A stretch of DNA of 16,647 nucleotides from Candidatus Zixiibacteriota bacterium (GCA_040235515.1 JBECKX010000165.1:1-16647); one strand, 5' to 3'; positions 772 to 16,387 are shown, counted from the stretch's first letter. Translations and numbers: made by a program. Notes: a model not told the origin generated them from the sequence alone.

Positions 772-3700
772 GTGCAGCGGCTGACCTTACTCCTCGCAAT
801 CTCACTTATCTTCACTACCCCCCTCGCAGCCACGACCTACTACGTCTCCCCTGGCGGCAACGACGGCAACTCAGGCCTCTCTTCCGGCGAAGCCTGGGCA
901 GCGATCGACAATGGGGATCGGCTGGGTGTGCTTCAGCCGGGAGACTCGGTCCTGGTGCTGCCCGGTTCCTATGTGGCTGCTGCCAGCTATGAGTTGACTT
1001 CCTCCGGGACATCGCTCCAACCGATCGTCTACTGTAAGTATGGTAGCGGCGCCGTGCTGATCGACGGGGGCACTCTGCCCACTGGCGTCGTGCGGCTGAC
1101 GGGGGATTACCTTATTGTCGACGGGCTTGAGGTCACAGGCGGCAATACGGTAGGCGTCGATATCCTTTCGGATCACTGCGTGGTGAAGTATTGCCACGTG
1201 CATGATTCGGGGGCCAGGGGGATCAGAGTCACGGGTACTTACAACACACTGCTTCGCAACACCATCTCCAACACCGGCGTTGCCGGCATAGAAGTGGGCA
1301 GTGAATACAACTACAGCTACAACAATACCCTTTACGGCTGCGGCACGCGCGGTATTCACTATAGTGCTGGTGTCACCGAGGGACGCATCTTTAACAATAT
1401 CTGCGCTGGTAACAGCGAAGGCATTCGCGCCAAGGCAACTGTAATCTGTGGATTCAACTGCCTCTGGAGCAATACCCTCAACTACACCAATACAGTGGTT
1501 GACTCCGCGGGTGGGATTGCCGCCGATCCACGATTCGTCAATGCGGCGGCGCAGAACTTCGATCTCCAGAGCAATTCCCCTTGCATCGACGCCGGACTTG
1601 ATCTCGGCTACCCATACGCTGCAAGCGCACCTGACATGGGCGCCTACGAGCTGATTGAAGGAGCCGATCTGGAGCTAAGCAACCTGGTCGTAGAACCTTC
1701 CACGATCGGCGGGTCGCGCTCGTTCTCGGTATGCAGTTTTACGCTCAGCAATAACGGGCCGGAAAACATCCTCGCAGCGGTCGTGGCGTTTGATTTCTAT
1801 CTCTCTGAGAACGGCAGCTACGGTGACGACGAAGTCAAGATTGGCACTTACTCAACCATTATCTCGCTCGGACCCGGCGGCATCCAGAATTTCTACTTAA
1901 GTGGACTCGCCCTGATAGGCGCAACTTCGACCTGGCCGGCCGATCAGCCCTGCGGTGACTACTATGTGTACGGTAATATCAGGATCGTTACGGCGCTGAC
2001 GAACGACAACTACCTCTTCAACAACTATGCCCGCACGAACAACTCAATCAGTTACACCGGCTGTCCGGTCGTGAATGTTGACCTTGAAGTAACGAAGTCA
2101 GCCGATACGGATACCTCATTTGTCGGCAGCGAAGTTTACTATAAAATCACAGTCCAGAATCATGGACCGAGTACGGCAACCGGTGTGGAGGTCACAGATA
2201 TTCTCCCGGCCGGTCTTACCTTCGAGCGCGATTCGGCGCTGGCGGGATCGTATACCGAAGCTACCGGCGTATGGGATATCGGTACCATTGCGGCAGGTTC
2301 AGGTACCGGACTCTATCTCTTCGCAACCGTCGACCCCGGCACGAAGGGCACCAAGATACTCAACACCGCGAGCATCACCGACTACAATCAGACAGATACG
2401 GATGCCGGCAACAATACAGCGGACTATTCGATCAGTATCATCAATCGTGCACCGCAACTGGCCGCGATCGACGACCAGACGATGTTTGAAGGCAACCACC
2501 TGGCGTTCACTGTCAGCGCCACCGATGCGGACGGCGATGCCATCACTCTCGCAGCGACAGGCCTGCCGCAACACGCAACGCTTGTCGACAACGGCGACGG
2601 CACGGGCGAATTCGAGTTCCAGGCCGACGCCACCCAGGCAGGTGTCTACACTGTAAAATTCATCGCCAGCGATGGCGATCTGGCGGACACCCTGTCGGTA
2701 ACCATCACCGTCAATGCCAAGAACTTCGCTCCCCAACTGAATACAATCGGTCCGAAGACGGTCGAGGTCGGAAACAGCCTCGCGTTCAGCGCGACCGCAA
2801 GTGACCCGGACGGCACTATTCCCACATTGAGTGCCGAAGATCTGCCGGCCAACGCCGGTTTTACCGACAACGGCGACGGCACAGGCGGTTTCTCATTCGT
2901 ACCACAATTCGGCCAGGCAGGGATCTACACAGTCCGCTTTATCGCCAGCGACGGCATCCTCGCCGACAGCGAAATAGTGCAGATCACCGTGGTGGAAGAC
3001 AACGTGCCCCCGGTGCTTGATCCGATCGGCGATCAAACGGTAGTGGAAGGTGACTTGCTTGCATTTACCGTTACTGCCTCCGACGCCAATACTTCCACTC
3101 CCTCGATCTCAGCAGAAAACCTGCCGGCTGGCGCAACATTGACCGACAACAACGACGGGACCGCTGATTTCAGCTTCAGCCCATCCTATTCACAGGCGGG
3201 CTCATACGCGGTGCTGTTCATCGCGGATGACGGGCTTGTCGCAGACAGCGAAGCGATCACCATCGTGGTTTACCCCGCACCGGTCGTGCGCATTGCGGTA
3301 ACACCCGACTCGGCCACGATCACCGCCGATTCAACACTGCAATACAGTGTGCGCGGCTATGACGCGGGCAACGTCGAGGATGATCCCGGCGACATCACCT
3401 GGTCACTCACCGCGGCAGTCGGGACAATCGATCCAACCGGATTGTTCACCCCTGCCAGCGCCGGAAACGCTCGGGTCGTCGCCCGCTCAGACTTGGGACT
3501 GGTGGACACCACAGCGCTTCTGGCCGTGATTCCCGGCGCCATCGCCCGCCTGAAGGTCACGCCCGATTCCGTACAGATAACGATCGCAAAGACCGGCCAG
3601 TTCACCGCAATTGCTTTCGATGCAGACTCGAACCTTGTGGCCGATGTCACCGCCACCGCTGACTGGAGTACCACCGATCCCCAGGGCAGCGTCGTGCAAG

Positions 3701-6700
3701 GGCTTTACACCGCCGGGCTCGCCGCCTCGCCGCCGGGTTACTTCGTAAGGGCCGAGAGCGCCGGAGTGGCTGATTCAGCTTATGTGGAAGTGCTTTCCGG
3801 AGTGACGTTTGATAAAATCGTCGTCACGCCAGATACAGCAACTCTTCAAATCAGTGATGCCCTCCTCTTCCATGCAATCGGCATCGATGACTTTGGGCAG
3901 CCGACCGAAATCAGCAACGTGAGCTGGGAAGTCCTCGGTGGAATTGGAGAGATCGACGCTGATGGCCACTTCACCGCCACGACGCGTGGGTACGGCAGGG
4001 TCCGGGCCACCACCAGCGACAGTCTCGCCAGCGATCTCAGTAACCTGATTCTGGTGGAGGTACCCGCGGTTTCTGCAACCCCGCTTGGTAATCAATTCGC
4101 CTTGCCGGCCGGCTCAGGCACCCCGGTTCTGGCCTTTGATATCACGAATCAATTCGCAATCTCCAGCGGCTTCAGTGGCCTTACCATCCGGCAGAAAGCA
4201 ACAGGAACGACCAACGCCAACGCGGTCGCAGCGGATTTAGACTCCCTAGTCCTCTGGCGTGATCTTGACTTGAGTGCAACCGTGAGCAGTGGCGATCAAC
4301 GAATTGCCGCAGCGCCGGTCGGCTCAGCAATAACGAGCTTCAGCTTCAGCGCAGTTCCGATTTTGCCTTATACCCAGAGTCGCTATCTGATTGCGGCCGG
4401 CGTCTCATTATTCCCGCGTGATAACGACACCCTCGATTTCTTCTTCCTCCCGGCGACTGACGTTACCACCAGCGATGCGACTCCGATCGCGGGTCAAGAC
4501 ACCCTCAATTCACTCGGACGCGTGATCGTCGACGGCATGATTGCGCAGCAGGTTGCCGTCGGCGGAATCGGCAACCGCAATGTCGAATCGGATGGAACGC
4601 TGCATCAGGTGATGACGATTGATATACCGCGTAACGGCTATGAGCAGGACACCCTGCGGCAACTTTCGGTGGTCAATCAGGGATCGGGCGGGGAGACAGA
4701 TGTTGACTCCCTCATACTCTTCCGCGATAACGGCGACCTCGTCTGGAGTGGTTCGGCGCTCGATCAGCAGGTTGGGGCGATATCGTATACCGGCGAGCTG
4801 TGGAGCACGACAGGACTTGCGGTCCCGCTCACCGCTCAGTCGAATCGCTTTTTCATACTACTCAAACTGGCTGAGTTCCCGACGGATGGTTCGACCTTCG
4901 CTCTTGCCGTGCCGGAACGTGGCATTGAAGTTGCCTCACGCAACGATGGCCCCATCGACCAGATGATTGAAAGCGTGGATACCGTCACTGTACTCTCAAA
5001 CAAGTCAGTATCCATTCAAGCGCTGAATATCGCGCCAAGAACCTTGATCCCCGGATCGGCGACCGGTCCGTTGGTGAAGTTCCGGGTCACGAATGGAACA
5101 CCAAACTCTCTTACACTCAACCGCCTCGATATCCGGGCTTACCTGTCCGATCCTCGTTCCGCGACCCAGGCACAACTGGAGAGCCAGGTCGACAGCGCAG
5201 TACTCTACATCAAGGTTGATGGGAACGATGCCGCTTTCGGGGGGGACGACCAATACTTGAAGGCGGGTGTGATGAGTGGAGGCGCGATAAACTTCGACGG
5301 CCTGGGCCTGATATTGCCTCAGAACGGCGGCTCTCTTACTCTTGCGGCAGGATTGTATCTCGATCCGCTCAATTGCCGTGATGGCAATACCGTAAACCTC
5401 GGAATCGAGGGATCTACGGCAATCGAGTTCGCTACCGCCACCACCCTCGAGGGTGACTTCCCGATAAAGAACAACGAGGGCTTCACGCTCAACGCGTTTC
5501 CCGCTTCCGCTATCAAGATCAATCCTGTTGCGGGCAAGACCCTCTATCCCGGGCAACGCAACGTCCTGGTGCTCGACTTCGAGCTGCCGCGTAACGGCTA
5601 TGCGAGCGATCGCCTCCGCGCACTTACGCTGCAACAACTGGGAACTCAATCGTCCTTCGATGCCCTTGCTGCAGTAAAGCTGTACGCCGATGCCGGAGCG
5701 GCCGGTTTCAGCGGTGACGATACATACCTCGGCAGCTTCACACGCAATGGCGGCACACTGCGCCTGACAAACCTGAATCAATTGGTGGCGCAGCAATCCA
5801 ATCGCTTCCTGGTGACAGTTGACATCAGTGATGGACAGTTTTCCGGAGGCAACTTCGATCTGCAGATTACAGCGGCCGGTGCAACCTACTCTTCAGGCAT
5901 GACTGGACCCGATGACAGCCCGGTAAGTAATCCCGATTATCACCTGTTGCTGCCTTCAGAGCGCATTACGGCGGTCGCGATTCCGGTAGAGTCAAAACTG
6001 CTCTATCCGGGCTCAACCAATAACGTGCTGCTCTCGTTCGCGCTCTATAACGGCTATGCGGAACTGGACCAAACACTCGAGTCGATTCGCTTCACCAACC
6101 TGACCGAGTCGGCGGCAGGCGAGGATTTTGGCGACGAAGAGATCGGATTGCTTTCGCTTTACCTCGATCAGAGCTCCGACGGCAAAACTACAGATGACCC
6201 GCTCCTTGCGACCGGTAGTTTCGGCGATGGCAGGCTGCAGATGTCCGGACTCGACATCAACCTGTCAGCCAACGCGCTCCTTTACTTCGTGGTGGTCGCC
6301 GACATCTCCGAATCAGCAATCGATTCCGATCAGCTGCAGATTTCGGTGGAGAGTGGCTCGGATCTAACCTTTACTGATGCCGTAAACATCAATGGAGATC
6401 TCCCCCTTACCACCGTACTGCCATTTACGATCGACGGATCGATTGCAAGTCAGTACGAGATTCGCGCGCTCAACCCGCGCACCCTCGTGACCGGACAGGA
6501 CACGGTATCATTATTCGCGCTCTCCGCAGCAACCAACGGAATACTCCCTGATGTGCTCACTTCATTTACCATTGAGAACATGGGCACCGCCACGCAGGTC
6601 GACTTCGAATCTCTTTCACTCTGGCACGACGATAACAACAATGGCTTGCGGGAGGCATCCGATACCCGATTGGGCGACCTCCAGTACAACAATGGCCGCT

Positions 6701-9534
6701 GGAGCATCTCCGGAATCGCACCGGTAATTTCGCAAGCATCAGCCAACCTGTTCGTGGTTGGCAACATCGCCGACAACGCGGTTTCGGGGCACACAATTCG
6801 ATTCAGGCTCCCGGTAGGCGGCGCCCAGTATGTCTCGAACAACGATGGCCCGCTCGACAAGGCATTGCCGGCGAACTACTCATTCACCATCTCAGACTCG
6901 CCGCTGCAAATCTCATACTCACTGGCCCGGCGCAACTATACGGTCGGCCAGGAGATAGGTCTGACCGCTACAGTCAAGAACACTTCCAGTTCAGCGCTCG
7001 ACGCTGTCTTCGTCGACCTGCTGACTACCTCAAATCCGGAGCTGGTTTCTACCGAGGTCACCCACGCCGGGCCATTCACTTTCGCGGCCAGTGAATCGCG
7101 CGATGTCGCATTTCCCCATCTGACCCTCGCACCAGGTAGCGTCGACTGGACGCTGCAAGCGTATTCCGCGATCGGTTCAGACAGCTCGATTGTTCTTACC
7201 ACCGACCCCGTAGATATCTTTTCAGTCTCACCGCCGGTGGCGGTTAGAATGATAAACTCGATTCCGAATGCGGTAACTGTCGGCCAAACGCACGTGTTTC
7301 CTTTCAGTATCCGCTATGCCCTAACCGAGCCGACAGCGAGTGCCGCCCCTGCGCGACTCGACAGTATCACGATCTCGGTGACGAAACCGGACGGTACACC
7401 GCTGGCGGCGAATGAATGTTTCGCCCGCGTGGTTCTGTCAAATGGTTACGAGCCCCTCAGCGTGGTCGAGCAGGTGCCGGCGACTTCAGAACTTACGCTC
7501 CGCTTCACTCGATCACTGCTGCTCTCAGGGACGGCCGAAGGCCTGCTGGCGCTCAGGGTCGATATCGGTGAGGAAGCTACCGCCAGCGCATTCAAGCTTG
7601 CGCTCGCCGATGCATCCGCGATCTACTTCGCCGACGACAACTCGGACGTCGCCATCAGTATCGTCGCAGAGGGTGGATTCCCTCTGGTTACGCCATCGTG
7701 TGAAATCGACACTCCGTCCGATGCTATGGCGGTTTCAGCAGCTCCGCTTCTGAATCAATACGTCAATTTTGGTCAGCAGTCGGTCAAACTAATCTCGCTC
7801 GATCTCAGGCACCCCGGAGAAGTGGGTGAGTCCAGAGTTCAGCTCACTGGCCTGCGAATTCGCGTGGAGGATCAAGCCGGTGATCCCTTGAACATCTCCA
7901 GCATCATGGATGAAGTCGCACTCGTCTCTGACAATCAGGTCATCGGCAAGATCAACACGTCAACGATCGATACAGAGAGCCTCACCCTGAATCCATTCGC
8001 TCCACCGGTTATCTTCCCCGGTTCGACTCGGGAAGTTATCCTCTGCGCAACGATTTCCGAATCGCCTTTCGGGGGCGGCTTCAAAGTGATCATCGACGAC
8101 AGCACCGCCTTTGAGTTCAGAGACCTCAGCTCCGGTTCATTGGTGGAAGCCACCGCCGACACACTCGTACTCTCCACCGGACTGCTTTTCCCGATCTCAT
8201 CGGGAACCGCTGAATTCAAGTGTCCCGCTTCCGACCCGGAGGTATGTGTGAACGCTCCCCGGTCGGCATCCGTGATCGCCGGAGCTACCGCCGTTGATCT
8301 GGTGACGATTGAAGTCGGCTATCCGGCAGCCGGTGACTGTTCTCAGTCAAGCCTTTCGCAGGTCAACGTTTCGTTCTTTGACCGCGAAGGTCGCGCGCTC
8401 GACCCAAGCAAGTTGTTTGACCAGATCGGCTGCCGCAAAAATGATGGCAATGTCGCATACCAGTCGTTCGTCGAACTCTCGGGCGGTGACGCGGTGTTCC
8501 GGACCGATAACCTTGATCTCGCCCTGAACCCGGGAGAAAGCTACACGCTTACACTCGTTGCTGATCTCGAGGCGAACATCCCATACGACCACTTCAAGAT
8601 CGGCTTCGAACAGTCCGCGTTCAGATTCGCCGACGTGACCGATCCTTCAAACCAGTTGGGCGTCTCATCGCCGCTCGGATGTGCGGCCGAATTCCCGGTC
8701 GCCAGTGATGAGATAGCAATTCTGCTTCCGGCCGGAAAACCGGTCCTCTCGTGGGCTTCAAAGGCACGGGTGAGCTTCGCCGGCGAGCAGACGGTGACAG
8801 CGTTCGCCGGAACCTTACTCTACAACGGCCCAACCCCGCTGGGTGATCTGCTTCTGCAATCGCTGCACGGCAGTCTCATGCTGCGTACTTCAGATGGCTA
8901 CGCGCCGACAAATCTCGCGGAGGTCTTCCAAACCCTGACACTGCAGATAGGCGGCACGACAGCGCTGCAACTGACAGAGTTTTCAGGTTCCGACTTCAGC
9001 TTTGCGTTGACTGCTCCCTATGAATTGAACTTCGGCGGCGAGACCGCGATCGCGTTGCTGGCGGACCTGCAGCCCGCCGCGGCATCAGGAAGCTATGCGA
9101 TACAATTCGAGGATTCGACCTTTGTCTCAATAATCGACAAACAGCTGGGTGGCCCGGTCTATCCGCTGTTGTCCGCTACCGATTACCCGCTCCGCGGATC
9201 GGAGTTATCACTCACCTCTGCGGGACTGGCGGAGTCCTTCACCAACTACCCGAACCCATTCTATCCGGATCGTGGTGATAACACGACCATCGCCTTTGTG
9301 CTGCCCCAGCCGGGAATAGTGCACTTGAGGGTCTACACCATCACCGGTGAGTTGGTTGAGACTCTTATCGATGGACAACACCGCGCTGCCGGCGCATACC
9401 AGATTGACTCATGGGATGGTGCTAATAGCCGGAGAAATTCGGTTATCCCGGGGACCTACTTCTGCCGGCTCAATGTTCAGTATGATTCCGGTGCTTCGGA
9501 GACGGTCACCAGAAAGGTAGCGGTGATCCGATGA
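772..9534 (+). CDS. Giant (~2,920 aa) secreted multi-domain surface protein or adhesin-like T9SS cargo: signal peptide, right-handed beta-helix, CARDB-like, DUF11, 3x cadherin-like Ig, 3x Big_2-like Ig, 10 large beta-sandwich-like repeats, C-terminal T9SS/FlgD-Ig-type sorting domain
   Basis: The ORF is open from 685. GTG at 772 has a GGGGGAG SD 7 nt upstream and gives a clean signal peptide MQRLTLLLAISLIFTTPLAA|TTYYVSPGGND. Motifs include YYVSPGGNDGNSG and DLQSNSPCIDAG...APDMGAYE (beta-helix ends), VDLEVTKSAD...NHGPSTATGVEVTDILPAGLTF (DUF11), NxxPxL...DNGDGT repeats, VTPDS/T repeats and C-terminal NYPNPF...VYTITGELV...WDG...PGTYF...KVAVIR. Confidence 0.9.
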   Translation: MQRLTLLLAISLIFTTPLAATTYYVSPGGNDGNSGLSSGEAWAAIDNGDRLGVLQPGDSVLVLPGSYVAAASYELTSSGTSLQPIVYCKYGSGAVLIDGGTLPTGVVRLTGDYLIVDGLEVTGGNTVGVDILSDHCVVKYCHVHDSGARGIRVTGTYNTLLRNTISNTGVAGIEVGSEYNYSYNNTLYGCGTRGIHYSAGVTEGRIFNNICAGNSEGIRAKATVICGFNCLWSNTLNYTNTVVDSAGGIAADPRFVNAAAQNFDLQSNSPCIDAGLDLGYPYAASAPDMGAYELIEGADLELSNLVVEPSTIGGSRSFSVCSFTLSNNGPENILAAVVAFDFYLSENGSYGDDEVKIGTYSTIISLGPGGIQNFYLSGLALIGATSTWPADQPCGDYYVYGNIRIVTALTNDNYLFNNYARTNNSISYTGCPVVNVDLEVTKSADTDTSFVGSEVYYKITVQNHGPSTATGVEVTDILPAGLTFERDSALAGSYTEATGVWDIGTIAAGSGTGLYLFATVDPGTKGTKILNTASITDYNQTDTDAGNNTADYSISIINRAPQLAAIDDQTMFEGNHLAFTVSATDADGDAITLAATGLPQHATLVDNGDGTGEFEFQADATQAGVYTVKFIASDGDLADTLSVTITVNAKNFAPQLNTIGPKTVEVGNSLAFSATASDPDGTIPTLSAEDLPANAGFTDNGDGTGGFSFVPQFGQAGIYTVRFIASDGILADSEIVQITVVEDNVPPVLDPIGDQTVVEGDLLAFTVTASDANTSTPSISAENLPAGATLTDNNDGTADFSFSPSYSQAGSYAVLFIADDGLVADSEAITIVVYPAPVVRIAVTPDSATITADSTLQYSVRGYDAGNVEDDPGDITWSLTAAVGTIDPTGLFTPASAGNARVVARSDLGLVDTTALLAVIPGAIARLKVTPDSVQITIAKTGQFTAIAFDADSNLVADVTATADWSTTDPQGSVVQGLYTAGLAASPPGYFVRAESAGVADSAYVEVLSGVTFDKIVVTPDTATLQISDALLFHAIGIDDFGQPTEISNVSWEVLGGIGEIDADGHFTATTRGYGRVRATTSDSLASDLSNLILVEVPAVSATPLGNQFALPAGSGTPVLAFDITNQFAISSGFSGLTIRQKATGTTNANAVAADLDSLVLWRDLDLSATVSSGDQRIAAAPVGSAITSFSFSAVPILPYTQSRYLIAAGVSLFPRDNDTLDFFFLPATDVTTSDATPIAGQDTLNSLGRVIVDGMIAQQVAVGGIGNRNVESDGTLHQVMTIDIPRNGYEQDTLRQLSVVNQGSGGETDVDSLILFRDNGDLVWSGSALDQQVGAISYTGELWSTTGLAVPLTAQSNRFFILLKLAEFPTDGSTFALAVPERGIEVASRNDGPIDQMIESVDTVTVLSNKSVSIQALNIAPRTLIPGSATGPLVKFRVTNGTPNSLTLNRLDIRAYLSDPRSATQAQLESQVDSAVLYIKVDGNDAAFGGDDQYLKAGVMSGGAINFDGLGLILPQNGGSLTLAAGLYLDPLNCRDGNTVNLGIEGSTAIEFATATTLEGDFPIKNNEGFTLNAFPASAIKINPVAGKTLYPGQRNVLVLDFELPRNGYASDRLRALTLQQLGTQSSFDALAAVKLYADAGAAGFSGDDTYLGSFTRNGGTLRLTNLNQLVAQQSNRFLVTVDISDGQFSGGNFDLQITAAGATYSSGMTGPDDSPVSNPDYHLLLPSERITAVAIPVESKLLYPGSTNNVLLSFALYNGYAELDQTLESIRFTNLTESAAGEDFGDEEIGLLSLYLDQSSDGKTTDDPLLATGSFGDGRLQMSGLDINLSANALLYFVVVADISESAIDSDQLQISVESGSDLTFTDAVNINGDLPLTTVLPFTIDGSIASQYEIRALNPRTLVTGQDTVSLFALSAATNGILPDVLTSFTIENMGTATQVDFESLSLWHDDNNNGLREASDTRLGDLQYNNGRWSISGIAPVISQASANLFVVGNIADNAVSGHTIRFRLPVGGAQYVSNNDGPLDKALPANYSFTISDSPLQISYSLARRNYTVGQEIGLTATVKNTSSSALDAVFVDLLTTSNPELVSTEVTHAGPFTFAASESRDVAFPHLTLAPGSVDWTLQAYSAIGSDSSIVLTTDPVDIFSVSPPVAVRMINSIPNAVTVGQTHVFPFSIRYALTEPTASAAPARLDSITISVTKPDGTPLAANECFARVVLSNGYEPLSVVEQVPATSELTLRFTRSLLLSGTAEGLLALRVDIGEEATASAFKLALADASAIYFADDNSDVAISIVAEGGFPLVTPSCEIDTPSDAMAVSAAPLLNQYVNFGQQSVKLISLDLRHPGEVGESRVQLTGLRIRVEDQAGDPLNISSIMDEVALVSDNQVIGKINTSTIDTESLTLNPFAPPVIFPGSTREVILCATISESPFGGGFKVIIDDSTAFEFRDLSSGSLVEATADTLVLSTGLLFPISSGTAEFKCPASDPEVCVNAPRSASVIAGATAVDLVTIEVGYPAAGDCSQSSLSQVNVSFFDREGRALDPSKLFDQIGCRKNDGNVAYQSFVELSGGDAVFRTDNLDLALNPGESYTLTLVADLEANIPYDHFKIGFEQSAFRFADVTDPSNQLGVSSPLGCAAEFPVASDEIAILLPAGKPVLSWASKARVSFAGEQTVTAFAGTLLYNGPTPLGDLLLQSLHGSLMLRTSDGYAPTNLAEVFQTLTLQIGGTTALQLTEFSGSDFSFALTAPYELNFGGETAIALLADLQPAAASGSYAIQFEDSTFVSIIDKQLGGPVYPLLSATDYPLRGSELSLTSAGLAESFTNYPNPFYPDRGDNTTIAFVLPQPGIVHLRVYTITGELVETLIDGQHRAAGAYQIDSWDGANSRRNSVIPGTYFCRLNVQYDSGASETVTRKVAVIR
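2443..3273 (+). repeat. Three tandem 93-aa cadherin-like/putative-Ig repeats within the giant CDS
   Basis: Units start at 2443 (NRAPQL), 2722 (NFAPQL) and 3001 (NVPPVL), exactly 279 nt apart. They share LP..A...DN.DGT..F.F.....QAG.Y.V.FIA.DG...D....ITV. Confidence 0.85.
3283..4055 (+). repeat. Three tandem Big_2-like Ig repeats within the giant CDS
   Basis: Units start at 3283 (VVRIAVTPDSATI), 3541 (IARLKVTPDSVQI) and 3808 (FDKIVVTPDTATL). Each has a conserved Trp and a G.(F/Y)T motif. Confidence 0.75.
4060..6897 (+). repeat. Three tandem ~315-aa A+B double-domain repeats within the giant CDS
   Basis: Units are 4060-4998, 4999-5955 and 5956-6897. B halves share PRNGY..D.L/ATNG...D.L, QSNRF and (N/M)(D/T)GP.D. 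An identical 16-mer CCGCGTAACGGCTATG occurs at 4627 and 5587. Confidence 0.75.
7225..9219 (+). repeat. Four diverged ~165-aa beta-rich repeats preceding the C-terminal sorting domain
   Basis: Units start at about 7225, 7714, 8224 and 8728. Each has an early G(Q/A/E) motif and ends in (F/Y)xxxxxxS/A...D...(F/Y)P(L/I/V). The first three share a central D..G.(P/A)L-like motif. Confidence 0.65.
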
Positions 9535-11561
9535 GAAAGCTCCTGCTTGCACTGATGCTACTTATCTTGATCCCATCGATCCTCGGCGCTACCGGATCAC
9601 AGGGTACGGAGTCACCATTCTCTTTCGGCGCCGGGGCGCGCGAGATTGCGCTGGGCTCCGCCTCGATCGCGAGGCCAACCCCTGCCATGGCGCCTTACTG
9701 GAATCCCGCCTATCTGGCACGGGCGCAGCATCTCTCGATCCTGCTGTTTCATTCCCAGCTATACGAGAGTGATGTCGCCTATCAGTATGCCGGCCTGGTA
9801 TTCCCGACCCTCGATTACGGCACCTTTGGCGTCGGGCTTTTCCGATTGGGCGTGGATGGTATCGAACTGCGCGATGACAACAACTTCTTCCTGGGCGAAA
9901 CCAGCGAGAGCCGCCTTGCACTCTACCTCGCATACGGCAAGAGTGTATCCGGCTTCGACCTTGGCCTCTCCCTTCACATGGAACAACAGAATCTCGCGGA
10001 GTTGAAAGCGACATCATCTCCCGCCCTGAATCTCTCCCTCTCGCGGGGCATCGCCTCCGGTATCCCCTGGATGCCTGAAGTAACCGCCGTCCTCAGCGGC
10101 CGCAACCTGGTGGGGGAGAAACTGCGTCTCGACGAACAGAATATCGACCACCCTGTCTCGCTCGATGCAGCATTCTCCTCAAAACTGCTCTTCAGCGAAG
10201 ACCAGAATAACACGGTAGATCTGTCAGTCAGGGCCGCGAAGGTGGATAAGGTTGATCCGATCCTGTGTGCCGGAATCGAATATGGGCTATACAACACTCT
10301 CTTCCTGCGGGCTGGAGTGCGTGATTCCAGGTACTCCTTTGGAACCGGTCTTCGCATCCGCAATTTCCAGTTCGACTATTCATTGACCGATCGGGACCTC
10401 GGCAGTCTTCACCTCTTCAATCTGAGCTTCGATATTGGCGCCTCCCGTTCGGATCGCCTGCTCGCCAGAAAAGAACGCGAAGCCAACCGCTTCAATGAAC
10501 TGATGCGCGCGAGGTTGAGCGCTGAGAGTCAGGCGGTAATCGACTCCCTCGTCGGTAGCGGAGAGACCATGATGCAGGAAGAAGAATATGACCAGGCGAA
10601 ACTGCTCTTTGACCGAGCGCTGTTCCTCGCCCGCAGTTCCGGCGGCGACACAACGACCGTGGCTCATCTGGCACAGCACTCTGCCGCCCTCGTCGCCGAG
10701 TTGACAGATAAGCGTCAATTCGAAGCGATGCTCGATTCTGCGCGCACGCGCCTGGAGGGGGGCGACCTGATCGGGGCCAGATACTTCGCCTCGCAGGCGA
10801 CCACGATCAGGCCCGATGACACAGACGCTCTGCAACTGCAGCATAAAATCGATGAGCAACTGATCGAAACTGAGAATACGCAGAAGCTGATCAATGCCCA
10901 ACTGGACCTCGCTGATTCACTCCTCGCGTTCGGTAATGCCGCAGCCGCCATCGAGCAACTTGAACCGGTCAAGCAGATTCCCGAACACGACTCGCGTGTC
11001 GATCGCCTTCTGGCCCGTGCGCACTTCGAGCAATGGAAGCAGCGGGCGCAGATAGCGCTGGTTAAACGCGATTATCGCTATGCCGCGATCGCGGTGGATT
11101 CCGCCGGCGTCTACTATCCGAACCATCCCTGGTGCAAGGAATTCAGGTCAGAGATCACTGCCGCACGCCGAAAGAACGCTGATCTGGCAACGACGAAACC
11201 CACCGTGCAACAACCCATGGCGCAACGCGCGCCACTGAGTGACGCTGTCCGGACCGAGGTCGAGGAGAAATTCAAGGACGGCAAGCGCCGCTTCGAAGCC
11301 GGAAAGCTGGAGGACGCGATCCAGACCTGGGAATATGTCGAGCGGCTGGCGCCCGATTTCGAGGGTGTACGGAACTACCTGACGCGCGCTTACAAATTCG
11401 TGGGGGTCAAGCTCTACGGTCAGGATAAGCTGACTGAGGCGCTCGATGCCTGGCGCCGCGCGATGGAGTTGAACCCAAACGATGCCGAGTTAAGAGACTA
11501 CATCGACCGTACCGAGAGAGAACTCACCAACCTCAGGGAATTGACCTATGGCAACCAGTAA
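9531..11561 (+). CDS. PorV/PorQ-family outer-membrane beta-barrel fused to a C-terminal helical/TPR region
   Basis: Signal peptide MRKLLLALMLLILIPSILGA, family motifs GAGAREIALGSA and YWNPAYLA, and alternating beta-strands ending FQFDYS...HLFNLSFDIG (~nt 10440). About 370 helical residues follow, with TPR motifs (GKRRFEAGKLEDAIQTWEYVERLAPD; GVKLYGQDKLTEALDAWRRAMELNPND). ATGA overlap with the upstream stop. Confidence 0.82.
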   Translation: MRKLLLALMLLILIPSILGATGSQGTESPFSFGAGAREIALGSASIARPTPAMAPYWNPAYLARAQHLSILLFHSQLYESDVAYQYAGLVFPTLDYGTFGVGLFRLGVDGIELRDDNNFFLGETSESRLALYLAYGKSVSGFDLGLSLHMEQQNLAELKATSSPALNLSLSRGIASGIPWMPEVTAVLSGRNLVGEKLRLDEQNIDHPVSLDAAFSSKLLFSEDQNNTVDLSVRAAKVDKVDPILCAGIEYGLYNTLFLRAGVRDSRYSFGTGLRIRNFQFDYSLTDRDLGSLHLFNLSFDIGASRSDRLLARKEREANRFNELMRARLSAESQAVIDSLVGSGETMMQEEEYDQAKLLFDRALFLARSSGGDTTTVAHLAQHSAALVAELTDKRQFEAMLDSARTRLEGGDLIGARYFASQATTIRPDDTDALQLQHKIDEQLIETENTQKLINAQLDLADSLLAFGNAAAAIEQLEPVKQIPEHDSRVDRLLARAHFEQWKQRAQIALVKRDYRYAAIAVDSAGVYYPNHPWCKEFRSEITAARRKNADLATTKPTVQQPMAQRAPLSDAVRTEVEEKFKDGKRRFEAGKLEDAIQTWEYVERLAPDFEGVRNYLTRAYKFVGVKLYGQDKLTEALDAWRRAMELNPNDAELRDYIDRTERELTNLRELTYGNQ

Positions 11562-13173
11562 GCAGCCTGACCATGAGCTAAACGGCGCTGCCGAAGCTGA
11601 GGCTAGTGCCTGGCCCGATCCGCGCGGATTCAAGCGCTCGATCAGAACTCAGTTCGCGGTTGTGATCTCCCTGCTGACAGTACTGCTGGTGCTGGTCTCT
11701 GGATATGGTTTTTCGAATCTCTACATTTCAACTGTGACCAACGCCGAAATCGACAAGCTGCTCGTGGCCGCTCGCTCGTTCTCCGCACCTACCGGCAAAT
11801 TGATGATTACCGGTCATGGCGCCGACGAGCTGCTGCTGCAGAACGTCTGCAAGCGACTCAAGTCAGAAGGCGACGACATCTACTGGGTAGGCGTCGCCAA
11901 TGCCGAGGGCCACTTCAAGGCGCATACCGACATAGCGCAGGTGATCGACGGTGCGCGCACGCGAGAGTTCTACTCGTCAGACTTCAGCGAGCTGCTGCGG
12001 GAAAATGAGCATATCCAGCTCTCGCACGACACGCTCTTTGTCTCCGTACCGATCAGCGAAAATAACGCCCAGCTCGGAACCCTCAGTCTGGCAGCATCCG
12101 GTAAGGCGATTTCCGAGGCACGCAACACCTCTCTACTGACTGTGCTGGCTCTCTTCCTCGTCATGTTACCGCTGAGCGCATTGGTCCCGACGCTGGTGCT
12201 GCGGCGGCAATTGAAGCCGATCAAGGTGATTGCCGATGGATTGAAGTCGATCAGCTACGAAAATGCCAGGGTGCAGATCCCTTACTCCTCCCGGAATGAA
12301 TTCGGATTCCTCGCCGAGACATTGCGTTCGATGGGGGACCGACTCGAATCGACCAGACAACAACTTGCCGAACAGGAACGCATGGCGCGTGAACTCGAAA
12401 TCGCCCGTGAGGTGCAGATGAGTATTCTCCCGCGCGTCTATCCCGGCTCCGACGACTTCTCGACCGCTGCCGCCTACAGGAGCGCAAAGGAAGTTGGTGG
12501 TGATTACTACGATTTTATCAATCTGGGTGATGGCCGCCACGCGATCATCGTGGCCGACGTGTCCGGCAAGTCGCTTCCCGGCATGTTGATGATGCTGATG
12601 ACCCGTGATCTGGTGAAAAGCCACGCGCTCTCGATCGATGATCCGAAAGCGCTGCTGTGCCACGTCAACAGTGAACTGAAAGCGTCGATCCGCGAGGGGA
12701 TGTTCGTCACGATGATCTACGGTATCCTCGACTCACGCCACGCCACTTTCAACTTCGCTTCCGCAGGTCACAATCCACTCGCGATTCAAACACCCGGCGA
12801 TGAGGTTCCACGGCTGATCAAGACTAAGGGTTTTCCGCTGGCGATGTTCGATGGCGAACTCTTCAACAATCGCATCGAAACCCACAAGCTGACTCTGCAG
12901 CCGGGCGAAGCGCTGCTGCTCTATACGGATGTCATCACCGAAGCACAGAACAACTCCAGCGAAGAATTTGGTGTCGGGCGATTGACCGACGTGTTGCGGC
13001 GCAGACATACACTCGACTCGGTCGGGATCGTCCGGTCCGTTATCTCAGAAGTCGATGCTTTCGTTGGAAACGCTGAGCAATACGATGACATCACGCTCGT
13101 TGCCATCAAATGGGAAGCCGCCCGCCTGCTGGCTGATTCCCGGAAGTCGCAGAGGAACAGCTATGCATGTTGA
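11548..13173 (+). CDS. Membrane-bound HAMP-domain SpoIIE/RsbU-family PP2C serine phosphatase
   Basis: Two hydrophobic TM segments flank a ~135-aa extracytoplasmic domain, followed by HAMP (LKPIKVIADGL...NEFGFLAE). PP2C motifs: ELEIAREVQMSILP, EVGGDYYDF, IVADVSGK, SAGHNP, LYTD, QYDDITLV. Overlaps the upstream gene by 14 nt. Confidence 0.92.
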   Translation: MATSKQPDHELNGAAEAEASAWPDPRGFKRSIRTQFAVVISLLTVLLVLVSGYGFSNLYISTVTNAEIDKLLVAARSFSAPTGKLMITGHGADELLLQNVCKRLKSEGDDIYWVGVANAEGHFKAHTDIAQVIDGARTREFYSSDFSELLRENEHIQLSHDTLFVSVPISENNAQLGTLSLAASGKAISEARNTSLLTVLALFLVMLPLSALVPTLVLRRQLKPIKVIADGLKSISYENARVQIPYSSRNEFGFLAETLRSMGDRLESTRQQLAEQERMARELEIAREVQMSILPRVYPGSDDFSTAAAYRSAKEVGGDYYDFINLGDGRHAIIVADVSGKSLPGMLMMLMTRDLVKSHALSIDDPKALLCHVNSELKASIREGMFVTMIYGILDSRHATFNFASAGHNPLAIQTPGDEVPRLIKTKGFPLAMFDGELFNNRIETHKLTLQPGEALLLYTDVITEAQNNSSEEFGVGRLTDVLRRRHTLDSVGIVRSVISEVDAFVGNAEQYDDITLVAIKWEAARLLADSRKSQRNSYAC

Positions 13174-13945
13174 TGCGAAATCCCGGCAGCGGGTGACCAT
13201 TCCATTCGACCTGACACCCGATAAAGTCGCCAGCCTCGACCAGTTTATCGGCAGCGTGATTAAGTGCGGTGTTGCCGAACTGGTGCTGGAGTGCGCACAG
13301 CTGACAAAAGCAACTTCGGTGCATATCGGAATCTTGTGGCGCGCCTACCTGAAGGCGGTGTCCACCGGCGCAAGGGTGAAACTGGTCTCGGTCGGCCCGT
13401 CGCTCTACCGCATACTGAGAGTGCTGGAGTTCGATCGCCAGATGGATATTGATCAACTCCTGCCCGCCGCCGAGCTTGAGGATACCGGCAGGTTTTTCCG
13501 CAGTTCGACGCCACGTTCATTCAATTCTCGCTGCTCGCGTGAACTCGAAAGCAGCCGAATGATGGTGCGTGCCTTCAGGCGCTTCATCCGAACCCTGAAC
13601 CTCTCCAGTCATGATGCGATAGATCTGGAAACCGTTTTCTACGAAGTCCTCACTAACATCCGTAACTACGCGCAGCTCAAGTCGGGCGATCTGATTGAAG
13701 TTTCCGCGGAACTCAACCGCGACGAGATTCATATCGTGTTTGCCGATCCCGGTATAGAATTTGACCCAACCAGGCCGCGCGCCGAGTTCCAGATCACTAA
13801 GGCGCTCAAGGCGGGACAGAATCACGGATTTGGGCTAATCATGATTGCAAAAATGACCGATAATATGGAATACTACAGGTACGAGGACGGCTACAACGTT
13901 CTCAAGCTGACCAAGAAGATATCCGAGGAAACACCGGGTGCTTGA
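13163..13945 (+). CDS. STAS domain fused to an RsbW/SpoIIAB-like HATPase serine kinase (anti-sigma factor), 260 aa
   Basis: ATG 13163 with AGAGGA SD is preferred over the ORF-track start at 13055. The N-terminal part has a STAS pattern (ELVLECAQL...IGIL...VKLVSVGPSLYRILRVLEFD). The C-terminal part has the N-box EVLTNIRNYA, the D-box ADPGIEFDP and the G-box HGFGLIMIAKMTDNMEY. Confidence 0.85.
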   Translation: MHVDAKSRQRVTIPFDLTPDKVASLDQFIGSVIKCGVAELVLECAQLTKATSVHIGILWRAYLKAVSTGARVKLVSVGPSLYRILRVLEFDRQMDIDQLLPAAELEDTGRFFRSSTPRSFNSRCSRELESSRMMVRAFRRFIRTLNLSSHDAIDLETVFYEVLTNIRNYAQLKSGDLIEVSAELNRDEIHIVFADPGIEFDPTRPRAEFQITKALKAGQNHGFGLIMIAKMTDNMEYYRYEDGYNVLKLTKKISEETPGA

Positions 13946-14303
13946 TAAAAAAGACTATGGACAGGAAGCGGTTATCGTGCTGCCGGGACAGGTGCTCGAT
14001 AACAATAACGCCCACGAAGTGATGCAGATCGTGGATGATTCCCTCAAGGCGAACAAGCGGATCGTCTTGTTCGATATGTCCACGGTCGAGTTCCTCTCCT
14101 CCGCCGGCGTGGGCTCTCTGATAAGCTCCCTCTCGACACTCAACAACGGCGGCGGCACGATGTGCCTGTTCGGGCTCTCAGACAAGATATTGCACGTACT
14201 CCAGGTGCTCGACCTAGGCGACTACATGCCGATAGAAGCTGACCTGGAGTCTGCGTACGCTTGCTGTCGCTCTGTGTCTCAAATTGAAAAGTCTACTGAT
14301 TAG
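13938..14303 (+). CDS. STAS-domain anti-sigma factor antagonist (RsbV/SpoIIAA-like)
   Basis: GTG start with GAGGA SD, 121 aa. The motif VLFDMSTVEFLSSAGVGSLI contains the canonical phospho-acceptor Ser region. Overlaps the upstream gene by 8 nt. Confidence 0.92.
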   Translation: MLDKKDYGQEAVIVLPGQVLDNNNAHEVMQIVDDSLKANKRIVLFDMSTVEFLSSAGVGSLISSLSTLNNGGGTMCLFGLSDKILHVLQVLDLGDYMPIEADLESAYACCRSVSQIEKSTD

Positions 14304-14438: not shown

Positions 14439-14467
14439 GCTTCAGGTGCGCGCGAAATTGCCGAAAA
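14439..14467 (+). promoter_or_regulatory. Candidate sigma28-family promoter of the histidine kinase gene
   Basis: GCTTCA (14439-14444)-N15-GCCGAAAA (14460-14467), with the same upstream hexamer and spacing as 698-726. Confidence 0.45.
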
Positions 14468-14545: not shown

Positions 14546-16285
14546 ATGACAGACCCATCACCTGCAAGCAACCTACCCCACTCACTCGAAGGAGTCGATG
14601 ATTCCGAGTACACGAATCCCACGCATTGGCTGAGTGTACTCAACAGCATTGTTGATGCCGTGATCACGACCGATCGCTTCGGTGTGGTAGATTTCCTCAA
14701 TCCGGGTGCTGAGCGGATGATTGGCGTCACGAGTAGCGACTGCCTCGGCAAGGGAATCAACGAAATCCTCGAGCTGCGCGACGAATACAGCGGCGACCCC
14801 ATGCCGTGCTACAGGCACGCTGATCAGGAGGATGGCTCATCCGAGGATATGTCGTTCCGTGCATTCCTGGTACGTCCCGATGGCGATAAGGTGCTCGTTG
14901 ACGGCACATTCGCGATGATCGGTCCCCGGTCGGAAAACGACCAAAGCAGAAAATCTGTCTGGGTACTGCGAGACCGCTCCAAACGCCAGTTTTCGGAAGC
15001 CTACCTGCGTGAATCGGAGGAAGGCTTTACACGACTCGCCGATACCACCGCGGATGTGATCATCCTTGTCAATGCCGAGAAACTGATCACCTTCTGGAAC
15101 CATGCCGCCGCGGCATTGAGCGGCTTCCCGCCGAAAGATGTAATCGGCAAGGAGCTCTCGGAGTTCGTACGATTCGGAAAGGCTACTAAGGAGGCGAGCG
15201 AGACGACTCAAACGGATTCGCAGATCGGCTACTTCAATTATCTCGAGTCGATCTCGCAACTCGAAATCGTCACGACCTACGGGGAACTGATTCCGGTAGA
15301 GGCTTCCCTCTCCTCGATTCAGTTGCGTGGAAGCTGGTTCACCGTCCTGATTTGCCGAGATGTTCGCGAGCGCAAGCGTGCCGAGATCGAAATCAACCGC
15401 TACCGGCTTCAACTCGAAGACCTCGTGCAGGAACGTACGCGTGAGCTGGTGAAAACCAACGAACAACTGAAGAACGAAATCGCGCAGCGCATCCACGAAG
15501 AAGAACAGCGCCGCAAACTGGAGGAACGGGTTCGTCGTGCCGAGAAGATGGAGTCGCTCGGAATCCTCGCCGGTGGCGTGGCACATGATCTCAACAACCT
15601 GCTCAGCCCGTTGCTCGGCTATCCACAGATACTGCGCACCTTGGTGCCGGCGGACAGGAAAATCCAGCACATGATCGAACAGATCGAAACCGCAGCCGAG
15701 GACGCCGTGGCGATAGTGGATGATCTCCACACATTCTCCCGCAGAAGCCGCTGCAACCTGAAACCGATCAGCCTGAATGACGTGGTCGATCGCTTCCTGA
15801 AATCATCGATCTATGACCGCTTGCGTAGACGTAAGCCGGGCGTGGAAGTGACGCTCCAACTCGACGAGAAGCTGCCACCGGTCAACGGCTCATCACCCCA
15901 CCTCATGAAGGTGGTCATGAACCTGGTTGTGAACGCTTACGACGCGATGGGTGAAGAGGGATCTCTCGTCATCGAGACGGCGGCAACCGATCGCGCCAGG
16001 CTTATGAATGGATACGAGAGCATGATCCCCGGCAAGTATGTTTTCCTGCGCGTCACCGACAGCGGTGAAGGCATCCCGGAGGATAAGCTGGAACGAATCT
16101 TCGAGCCCTACTTCTCGACCAAACAGATGAACGAAAGCGGCACCGGCCTGGGGCTGGCAATCGTATATGGTGTCGTTAAGGACCATCATGGTTACTATGA
16201 TGTCATCTCCCGGGTGGGAGAGGGCACAACCTTCCTGATCTACCTGCCGGAAGCACTCACCGAGGATCGATCCACAGATTCGTAA
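14546..16285 (+). CDS. Cytoplasmic PAS-PAS sensor histidine kinase (HisKA + HATPase_c), no receiver domain
   Basis: Two PAS domains (LNSIVDAVITTD...NPGAERM; ADVIILVN...WNHAAAAL...RDVRERK) and a coiled coil. H-box LAGGVAHDLNNLL, N-box NLVVNAYDAM, D/F/G boxes DSGEGI, IFEPYFSTK, GTGLGL. No TM segments. The start codon is uncertain because the SD is weak. Confidence 0.93.
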   Translation: MTDPSPASNLPHSLEGVDDSEYTNPTHWLSVLNSIVDAVITTDRFGVVDFLNPGAERMIGVTSSDCLGKGINEILELRDEYSGDPMPCYRHADQEDGSSEDMSFRAFLVRPDGDKVLVDGTFAMIGPRSENDQSRKSVWVLRDRSKRQFSEAYLRESEEGFTRLADTTADVIILVNAEKLITFWNHAAAALSGFPPKDVIGKELSEFVRFGKATKEASETTQTDSQIGYFNYLESISQLEIVTTYGELIPVEASLSSIQLRGSWFTVLICRDVRERKRAEIEINRYRLQLEDLVQERTRELVKTNEQLKNEIAQRIHEEEQRRKLEERVRRAEKMESLGILAGGVAHDLNNLLSPLLGYPQILRTLVPADRKIQHMIEQIETAAEDAVAIVDDLHTFSRRSRCNLKPISLNDVVDRFLKSSIYDRLRRRKPGVEVTLQLDEKLPPVNGSSPHLMKVVMNLVVNAYDAMGEEGSLVIETAATDRARLMNGYESMIPGKYVFLRVTDSGEGIPEDKLERIFEPYFSTKQMNESGTGLGLAIVYGVVKDHHGYYDVISRVGEGTTFLIYLPEALTEDRSTDS

Positions 16286-16387
16286 CCGTCAGCTACGAAC
16301 TCCGCCGGCTGACTGCATCTACTTTTTTGTTGTAACTTCCGCACGCATTCGATAGTTTCGAGCTGCGGCCAAAGCCGTTTTGGATAT

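Follow-up and report, generated by a model that had tools for sequence, protein, structure and literature searches.

Can an outer-membrane barrel of the kind that carries cargo of a type IX secretion system (T9SS) also report on that cargo to the cytoplasm? The question is raised by a 16,647-nucleotide stretch of DNA from Candidatus Zixiibacteriota bacterium (GCA_040235515.1 JBECKX010000165.1:1-16647; hereafter the window, which is the whole of contig C17 of genome G000, the host). Five co-oriented genes on its plus strand encode a giant secreted cargo (ORF1, 772–9534, 2,920 amino acids), a PorV-like barrel with a helical stalk and an arm of tetratricopeptide repeats (TPRs; ORF2, 9531–11561, 676 amino acids), an inner-membrane phosphatase arranged as transmembrane segment, sCache, transmembrane segment, HAMP and PP2C (ORF3, 11548–13173, 541 amino acids), a STAS domain fused to an RsbW-like GHKL Ser/Thr kinase (ORF4, 13163–13945, 260 amino acids) and an RsbV/SpoIIAA-like STAS protein (ORF5, 13938–14303, 121 amino acids). 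Successive genes overlap by 4, 14, 11 and 8 nucleotides, the same figures that a reading made before any database search (the sequence-only reading) had counted; its domain calls for ORF1–ORF5 were borne out by Pfam and NCBIfam, and its view that the gene order steps from the cell surface to the cytoplasm was supported. We lean, by a little, towards the answer that the operon is an outside-in surface-sensing chain that runs from the cargo to the partner switch.

The five-gene operon is real and highly conserved. Orthologous barrels occur in 79 of the 285 genomes of the phylum, and we tallied the neighbours of all orthologous-barrel matches (84 loci including the window, with ratios taken over testable loci). 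At 78 of 79 loci the gene directly upstream of the barrel is that of the cargo, and downstream of the barrel come the PP2C phosphatase (78/78), the STAS-kinase (71/72) and the STAS protein (68/69); the exceptions to the gene order are L229, L198, L220, G001 and the window. Given that the neighbours are near-invariant, the order is not due to chance, and the gene order that the sequence-only reading had proposed to look for in other genomes is kept there. Barrel homologues that carry names are mostly labelled Zixibacteria, a scan of named genomes with one barrel protein as the query yielded a single locus, distant and tail-less, and public DNA contigs are short, none of them spanning the operon.

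A sixth gene, encoding a GAF–PAS–HisKA–HATPase histidine kinase, follows at 63 of 66 testable loci (in some as longer variants), and the conserved unit is six genes. The sequence-only reading did not include this gene, nor did it include a sigma-28-type promoter with a flagellar link, a paralogous operon on host contig C75 or a substitution in the phosphatase (G462V), all of which are described below. Neither the window nor G001, a genome of the same genus, has the sixth gene there; each has instead a PAS–PAS–HisKA–HATPase histidine kinase of different build, about 240 nucleotides downstream (in the window 242 nucleotides, at 14546–16285 on the plus strand, 579 amino acids). The window protein reaches 92 bits on the sixth-gene profile, on which true members mostly score 600–820, and elsewhere in the host no orthologue of the sixth gene was found (best own-genome match, 304 bits); judging from these sequences, the dedicated GAF–PAS kinase is lost in this genus. 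The PAS kinase of the window is also without the receiver domain that its G001 orthologue has.

What would such an operon place at the cell surface? Translation of the cargo starts at a GTG after a GGGGGAG ribosome site and continues into a signal peptide (the longest open frame begins at 685), followed by a beta-helix, DUF11, Ig repeats and a weak FlgD/T9SS C-terminal domain (Pfam and NCBIfam), with about 1,700 residues without annotation and the C terminus KVAVIR. The tail scores 20.6 bits against the type A C-terminal domain TIGR04183 (cut-off 23) and 18 bits against FlgD_ig (cut-off 27); on a C-terminal-domain profile of the family itself, ORF1 reaches 130 bits and the next such protein of the genome 54. 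Complete cargo orthologues are mostly 1,855–3,386 amino acids long, shorter values being split frames. A comparison of the tail with solved structures gave no convincing match, and self-BLAST found no internal repeats.

The second protein is predicted (AlphaFold; pLDDT, the predicted local distance difference test score, of 90) to consist of a plug, 14 strands (residues 68–302), a 44-residue helix and helical repeats that continue to the C terminus, that is, a barrel at residues 25–303 that, in the model, has the FadL-like layout of 14 strands with an N-terminal plug, and a 370-residue TPR arm. Among 48,161 chains the top fold match is PorV (6h3i_F; Z 31.1, root-mean-square deviation 3.3, 276 residues), with FadL homologues ranking below it (Z 28.5 and 26.9) and the distal TPR module barely covered by the search. 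Against the NCBIfam model PorV_fam it scores 77 bits, under the 90-bit cut-off, and TPRs are matched as well.

Machinery to export the cargo is encoded in the same genome, in which SprA and PorU score above their cut-offs; SprA had been one of the core T9SS components whose presence in the host the sequence-only reading left to be checked. The host has 17 PorV-family matches, of which seven others than ORF2 pass the 90-bit cut-off, and several of these genes lie directly behind one for a protein with a T9SS-like tail, so that dedicated cargo–barrel pairs seem to be common in this genome. One further PorV-family gene (C82:2727–5769) encodes more than 1,000 amino acids with a large insertion and lies directly behind PorU. 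Searches of the host for GldK, GldM, GldN and PorP gave no match, with no positive control passing the cut-off either. SprA is present in 120 of 121 genomes sampled across the phylum, and the SprA–PorU–PorV machinery is thus extended to a phylum outside Bacteroidota; in the part of one survey drawn on here, the full T9SS is restricted to Bacteroidetes (PMC4793230).

Behind the barrel, the parts of an RsbU/RsbV/RsbW-type switch are all present: a PP2C phosphatase with its metal-binding Asp residues, the boxes of a GHKL kinase and a STAS protein with a candidate Ser. ORF3 has hydrophobic segments at residues 36–54 and 191–209, a HAMP domain and a SpoIIE/PP2C domain (SpoIIE, 148.7 bits), and its model runs from a helix through a PAS-like domain, a second helix, the HAMP region and a long helix to PP2C, with a periplasmic part near sCache_3_2 (Atlas). 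In the paired alignments (65 of the 84 loci, namely those with a complete barrel and PP2C), D319, D322, D337, D461, D513 and D514 are invariant in all 65 sequences. ORF4 joins STAS to HATPase_c_2 (58.8 bits) and keeps the kinase boxes (E161, N165, D195, G197, G222 and G224), and Ser52 of its STAS domain is present in the window and in 61 of 64 orthologues. ORF5 matches TIGR00377 above the cut-off (61 bits) and has the motif FLSSAG, which, following the SpoIIAA motif, we take to be the phospho-acceptor site; its S54 and S55 are invariant in 47 of 47 orthologues. No cognate sigma factor in a SigB/SigF-type layout was seen in the operon, the sixth gene being a histidine kinase, although no sigma-factor profile was run on the loci. 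At one locus (L036:3551–4708, genome G009) the STAS-kinase and STAS protein are fused in one frame of 385 amino acids. The host also has a further cluster of a PP2C, a small HATPase and a histidine kinase (C121:29428–36526), a possible source of cross-talk.

Is the window copy itself in working order? G462, which adjoins the catalytic D461, is kept in 64 of 65 PP2C sequences, and the window alone carries G462V, which may weaken its phosphatase. The same codon is found in a Logan contig spanning 12271–13168, possibly from the source sample. Of 140 columns that are highly conserved, the window PP2C departs from the family at 18, where the family median is 3, and the barrel–TPR protein departs at 12 of 119; together with the missing sixth gene, these departures and the 1-in-65 substitution, recurring in the Logan contig, would fit a copy that is decaying or being rewired, its cognate kinase lost and its phosphatase damaged. 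We regard this as unlikely, and it is compatible with the other readings of the operon: none of the five frames is broken and their overlaps remain coupled, no metal-binding Asp has been lost, and most departures are shared with G001, the pair grouping with another divergent copy, L222. A sigma-28-like site also precedes the replacement kinase in both the window (14442–14467, plus strand, matrix score 15.8) and, at the matching place, G001 (16.8).

The step that would make a sensing chain of these parts is a link between the TPR arm and the sensor domain of the phosphatase. In normal barrel topology the chain end after the last barrel strand is periplasmic, and because the arm begins after that strand, it would lie in the periplasm; it has no hydrophobic segment. 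Mean identity in the paired alignments is 47–57% in the distal TPRs, 34–37% in the proximal TPRs and 18% in the linker, and 46–57% in the sensor domain outside one loop. Among the 17 PorV-family matches of the host, a PP2C gene comes next only after the two barrels with long TPR arms (on C17 and C75), and among 78 metagenome loci none follows directly downstream of tail-less barrels; each sensor-domain profile matches only its own gene among the 3,563 open reading frames of the host. When shared signal was removed, TPR–sensor gave the top cross-protein rate correlation (partial r about 0.27–0.31; 65 loci, then 53 without near-duplicates and two second copies) and barrel–sensor the lowest. The TPR–sensor pair stayed on top in 240 of 300 taxon subsamples and 75 of 100 column subsamples, a weak signal that carries no significance test. 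A complex prediction for the arm (305–676) with the sensor (56–193) scored 0.00, a 'no answer' that counts neither for nor against contact.

The same pairing recurs outside the orthologous family. A paralogous barrel–TPR protein occurs in 188 of the 285 genomes, including the host (C75), in operons of a shorter cargo, the barrel–TPR protein and a fused HATPase–Cache–HAMP–PP2C protein, after which a ParA-like ATPase and a STAS protein are often encoded. In 47 of the 48 genomes that were checked, the sensor gene comes next (only its N-terminal part is visible in short loci), the exception being G027, in which it is on another contig, and the two families are homologous both over barrel–TPR and over sensor–PP2C (hhalign 100%). 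The host copy (C75:3–7050) holds the cargo, the barrel–TPR protein and a HATPase–Cache–HAMP–PP2C frame cut by the contig end, and another contig (C23:2–2824) seems to hold the remaining PP2C and STAS protein of that operon. Downstream of the paralogous operon, loci L037, L039–L043 and L045 have a GGDEF protein (Pfam, L037) and genes that resemble, by eye, polysaccharide export and chain-length genes, neighbours that hint at a biofilm output for the paralogous family.

In two metagenome loci, L064 (3494–6825, minus strand) and L094, the barrel–TPR gene is joined by overlap to a gene for a Cache–HAMP histidine kinase, with a small cargo in L094, as if the input had been kept and the output changed; as sCache_3_2 is a common family, these matches are partly generic. 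L096 has, where its contig ends, a kinase closely related to that of L064. Downstream in both L064 and L096 lies another kinase, whose N-terminal region is receiver-like. On a broader reading, a T9SS shuttle barrel would itself be the transducer in a new class of cell-surface signalling: barrel, TPR arm and Cache–HAMP sensor would make up a transferable input module that signals the state of a surface protein after its secretion and that serves, in flagellated Zixibacteria, as a sigma-28 surface-contact switch, a generalization for and against which we find the case evenly balanced. Its component claim, that the outputs are interchangeable between a Ser/Thr partner switch, a fused kinase–phosphatase and a histidine kinase, stands for us at the same even point.

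The same anatomy could be driven in the opposite direction. In a Lap-like, inside-out arrangement, the cytoplasmic state would act through PP2C and HAMP to make the periplasmic domain grip or free the arm, so that the cargo is retained or shed. A periplasmic domain, HAMP and a cytoplasmic enzyme would suit this, host PorU could process the cargo, and the paralogue has kinase and phosphatase fused into the membrane protein. However, the phosphatase and kinase motifs are intact family-wide, unlike those of the degenerate LapD receptor; a swap of output to a histidine kinase (L064 and L094) suits a sensor better than an effector; and the operon has no protease. We consider inside-out control distinctly unlikely.

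When would the operon be expressed? The sigma-28 consensus is of the TAAA-N15-GCCGATAA type, and a candidate sigma-28 (FliA)-type promoter lies at 700–726 on the plus strand, with the −10 element GCCGATAC at 719–726 and a weak −35 element at about 700–704, 53 nucleotides before the GTG. On 40 loci with a complete cargo of more than 2,000 amino acids, the family pattern T[AC]A[AG]-N14-16-GCCGATAA occurs upstream of the cargo in 24 (reverse strand, 3; shuffle mean, 1.0), mostly 33–59 and sometimes 16–26 nucleotides before the next in-frame start; among the controls it occurs before 51 of 968 first-in-operon genes of the host, 3 of 63 other genes from these loci and none of the 11 paralogue cargos. 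The window site itself does not satisfy this two-box pattern; a matrix from which the window was left out gives it 13.3, a score that 53 of the 968 first-in-operon genes reach. Matrix sites also stand before flagellin (14.8 and 13.8), and of three metagenome loci that were not in the training set two pass, one of which looks near-identical to a training locus. Internal sigma-28-like matches before the STAS-kinase gene (23 of 71) were discounted, as they probably arise from the conserved Asp-Asp-Ile codons of PP2C.

The host encodes FliA (TIGR02479 above the cut-off, C92:4331–5002), upstream of which lie genes resembling, by eye, flhA, flhF and fleN, and it has flagellin; Pfam FlgM was not found in it. 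FliA is above the cut-off in 267 of the 285 genomes, and FlhA is present in 78 of 79 carriers of the operon versus 149 of 206 others. Operon expression is likely, as read from these sequences, to be tied to the flagellated state. Genome-wide, the host has the sigma-28-like motif before first-in-operon genes in 51 of 968 cases in sense and 25 in antisense, including regulators and housekeeping-like genes, and this roughly twofold sense-strand excess hints at a broad sigma-28 regulon. Loci L250, L255, L257 and L260 contain FliA/WhiG-type sigma genes without flagellar neighbours, and in families f2, f10, f11, f14 and f15 the sigma factor is present with no FlhA match.

Several points weigh against the sensing chain. 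The basis for the relay is gene context, and genes whose products do not touch are also brought together in operons when they are co-regulated; the rate correlation is small and is drawn from pairs that lack independence, and co-variation of two periplasmic domains could have unrelated causes; and the ligand-binding family sCache_3_2 is common. PorV-like barrels with TPR tails occur without a sensor next to them, being followed by a membrane protein in L071, L081, L088 and L116 (in L071 one with FliG and TPR domains) and by TPR proteins in L109 and L124. The promoter pattern was fixed after the sequences had been seen and independent checks are few, the FlhA link is confounded by kinship, FliA is near universal, and the window copy has the G462V substitution and no sixth gene. 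As to the sensor-less loci themselves, L071 (9962–13683), L081, L088 and L116 show a third pairing, of a barrel whose TPR tail is shorter (about 530 amino acids) with the membrane protein, which in L071 has FliG middle and C-terminal domains and TPRs, and in L071 and L081 a protein with a C-terminal domain of the cargo type is encoded upstream of the barrel.

A rival reading is co-regulation without contact, in which the arm would be an anchor or scaffold for the cargo–barrel pair, as PorE is with PorP, the Cache domain would respond to a small molecule, and a common sigma-28 promoter and behaviour would be what keeps the genes together. Ligands of single Cache domains are usually small, the genes are seen to have a promoter in common, and the sensor-less TPR-tailed barrels exist. 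An anchoring complex of PorE, PorP and PG1035 is described in the part of the source consulted (PMC9143113), and a TPR domain in PorE is noted in another, likewise drawn on in part (PMC12773672). Yet the paralogous family has the promoter in 0 of 11 cases and occurs in families without FlhA (f10, 3/3; f14, 2/3), and still keeps the sensor adjacent in 47 of 48, and the tail-less cargo–barrel pairs of the host have no adjoining sensor. We hold co-regulation without contact to be possible but somewhat unlikely, and put the relay of a signal by the TPR arm to the sensor domain slightly above an even chance, arguing from genomic data. Of the sequence-only relay, the link of barrel–TPR with sensor has gained indirect support from the paralogous families, the output swaps and the conservation of distal TPRs and sensor, and the relay itself and its direction are, as then, what we infer.

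The genes and their order, the domains, predicted folds and catalytic motifs, the sigma-28-type motif and the co-occurrence with FlhA are the observed frame of the sensing chain, which may work as follows. The cargo would be exported through host SprA and then held on its own PorV-like barrel; by analogy with cognate shuttle–cargo pairs, and because the two genes overlap by 4 nucleotides and are conserved together, we suggest that the barrel binds the C-terminal domain of the adjacent cargo as it leaves SprA. The TPR arm, placed by barrel topology, would cross the periplasm to the Cache domain, and cargo loading or surface contact would move the arm, the signal passing through the Cache domain, membrane helices and HAMP to PP2C, which would oppose the STAS-kinase in setting the phosphorylation state of the STAS protein. 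In most relatives the latter may regulate the co-encoded GAF–PAS histidine kinase, as SiaC does SiaD, or it may act on a FlgM/sigma-28 circuit, as HsbA does. As its expression is likely linked to the flagellated state, the module would serve swimming cells in the decision to attach. If the relay is true, T9SS shuttle barrels report to the cytoplasm besides carrying and anchoring cargo, and a new route would join the short list of trans-envelope signalling designs. The findings also link giant surface proteins of an uncultured sediment group to the flagellar sigma factor.

Elsewhere in the window, a tRNA-Arg (TCT) lies near the contig end (16387–16462), and Rfam matched tRNA only. Scans for sigma-70 promoters and terminators gave no more matches than chance would. 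After the stop of the PAS kinase (16288–16328), a hairpin with a T-tract was seen by eye; it is not in the list from the terminator scan.

How does the operon compare with known systems? In the open-access literature, subscription journals lying mostly outside the coverage, we found no description of this operon or of its combination of parts, in agreement with the sequence-only reading, which had not recognised it as a characterised system. The proposed periplasmic step has analogues in FecA–FecR–FecI, YfiB–YfiR–YfiN and LapA–LapG–LapD, in which a component of the outer membrane is connected across the periplasm with a regulator in the inner membrane; a periplasmic domain, HAMP and an enzyme domain are found in YfiN and LapD. 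None of these is known to employ a shuttle barrel of the T9SS, to have a TPR arm fused to a barrel or to signal by a Ser/Thr partner switch.

Closest on the cytoplasmic side, SiaABCD of Pseudomonas aeruginosa shares a PP2C, a kinase, a STAS target and a co-encoded output enzyme in a partner switch that controls attachment, according to the part of its description used here (PMC7647112), and SiaA-PP2C (6k4e) is the top fold match of ORF3. In that same part, SiaABCD has no outer-membrane barrel or surface cargo, its output is a diguanylate cyclase where a GAF–PAS histidine kinase stands here, and its kinase does not carry a STAS domain of its own as ORF4 does. As far as the sections considered go, HsbR–HsbA–FlgM/FliA likewise links STAS phosphorylation to sigma-28 and the motile–sessile choice, with a cytoplasmic response regulator as input in place of the membrane Cache–HAMP phosphatase (PMC6482189). 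On the cell-surface side, SprB–SprF, PG1035–PorP–PorE and the pairs of type B C-terminal domain with PorP have a cargo gene linked to its own barrel, as here, and PorE is a periplasmic TPR-bearing partner where the TPRs are here fused to the barrel; in the parts of these accounts drawn on, anchoring and targeting are described, not signalling (PMC9143113, PMC12618676). From these cognate pairs, as far as those parts describe them, the present operon differs in its PorV-like barrel, its type A/FlgD-like cargo tail, its host outside Bacteroidota and the signalling module downstream. The parts are known, and the wiring, as we infer it, is new.

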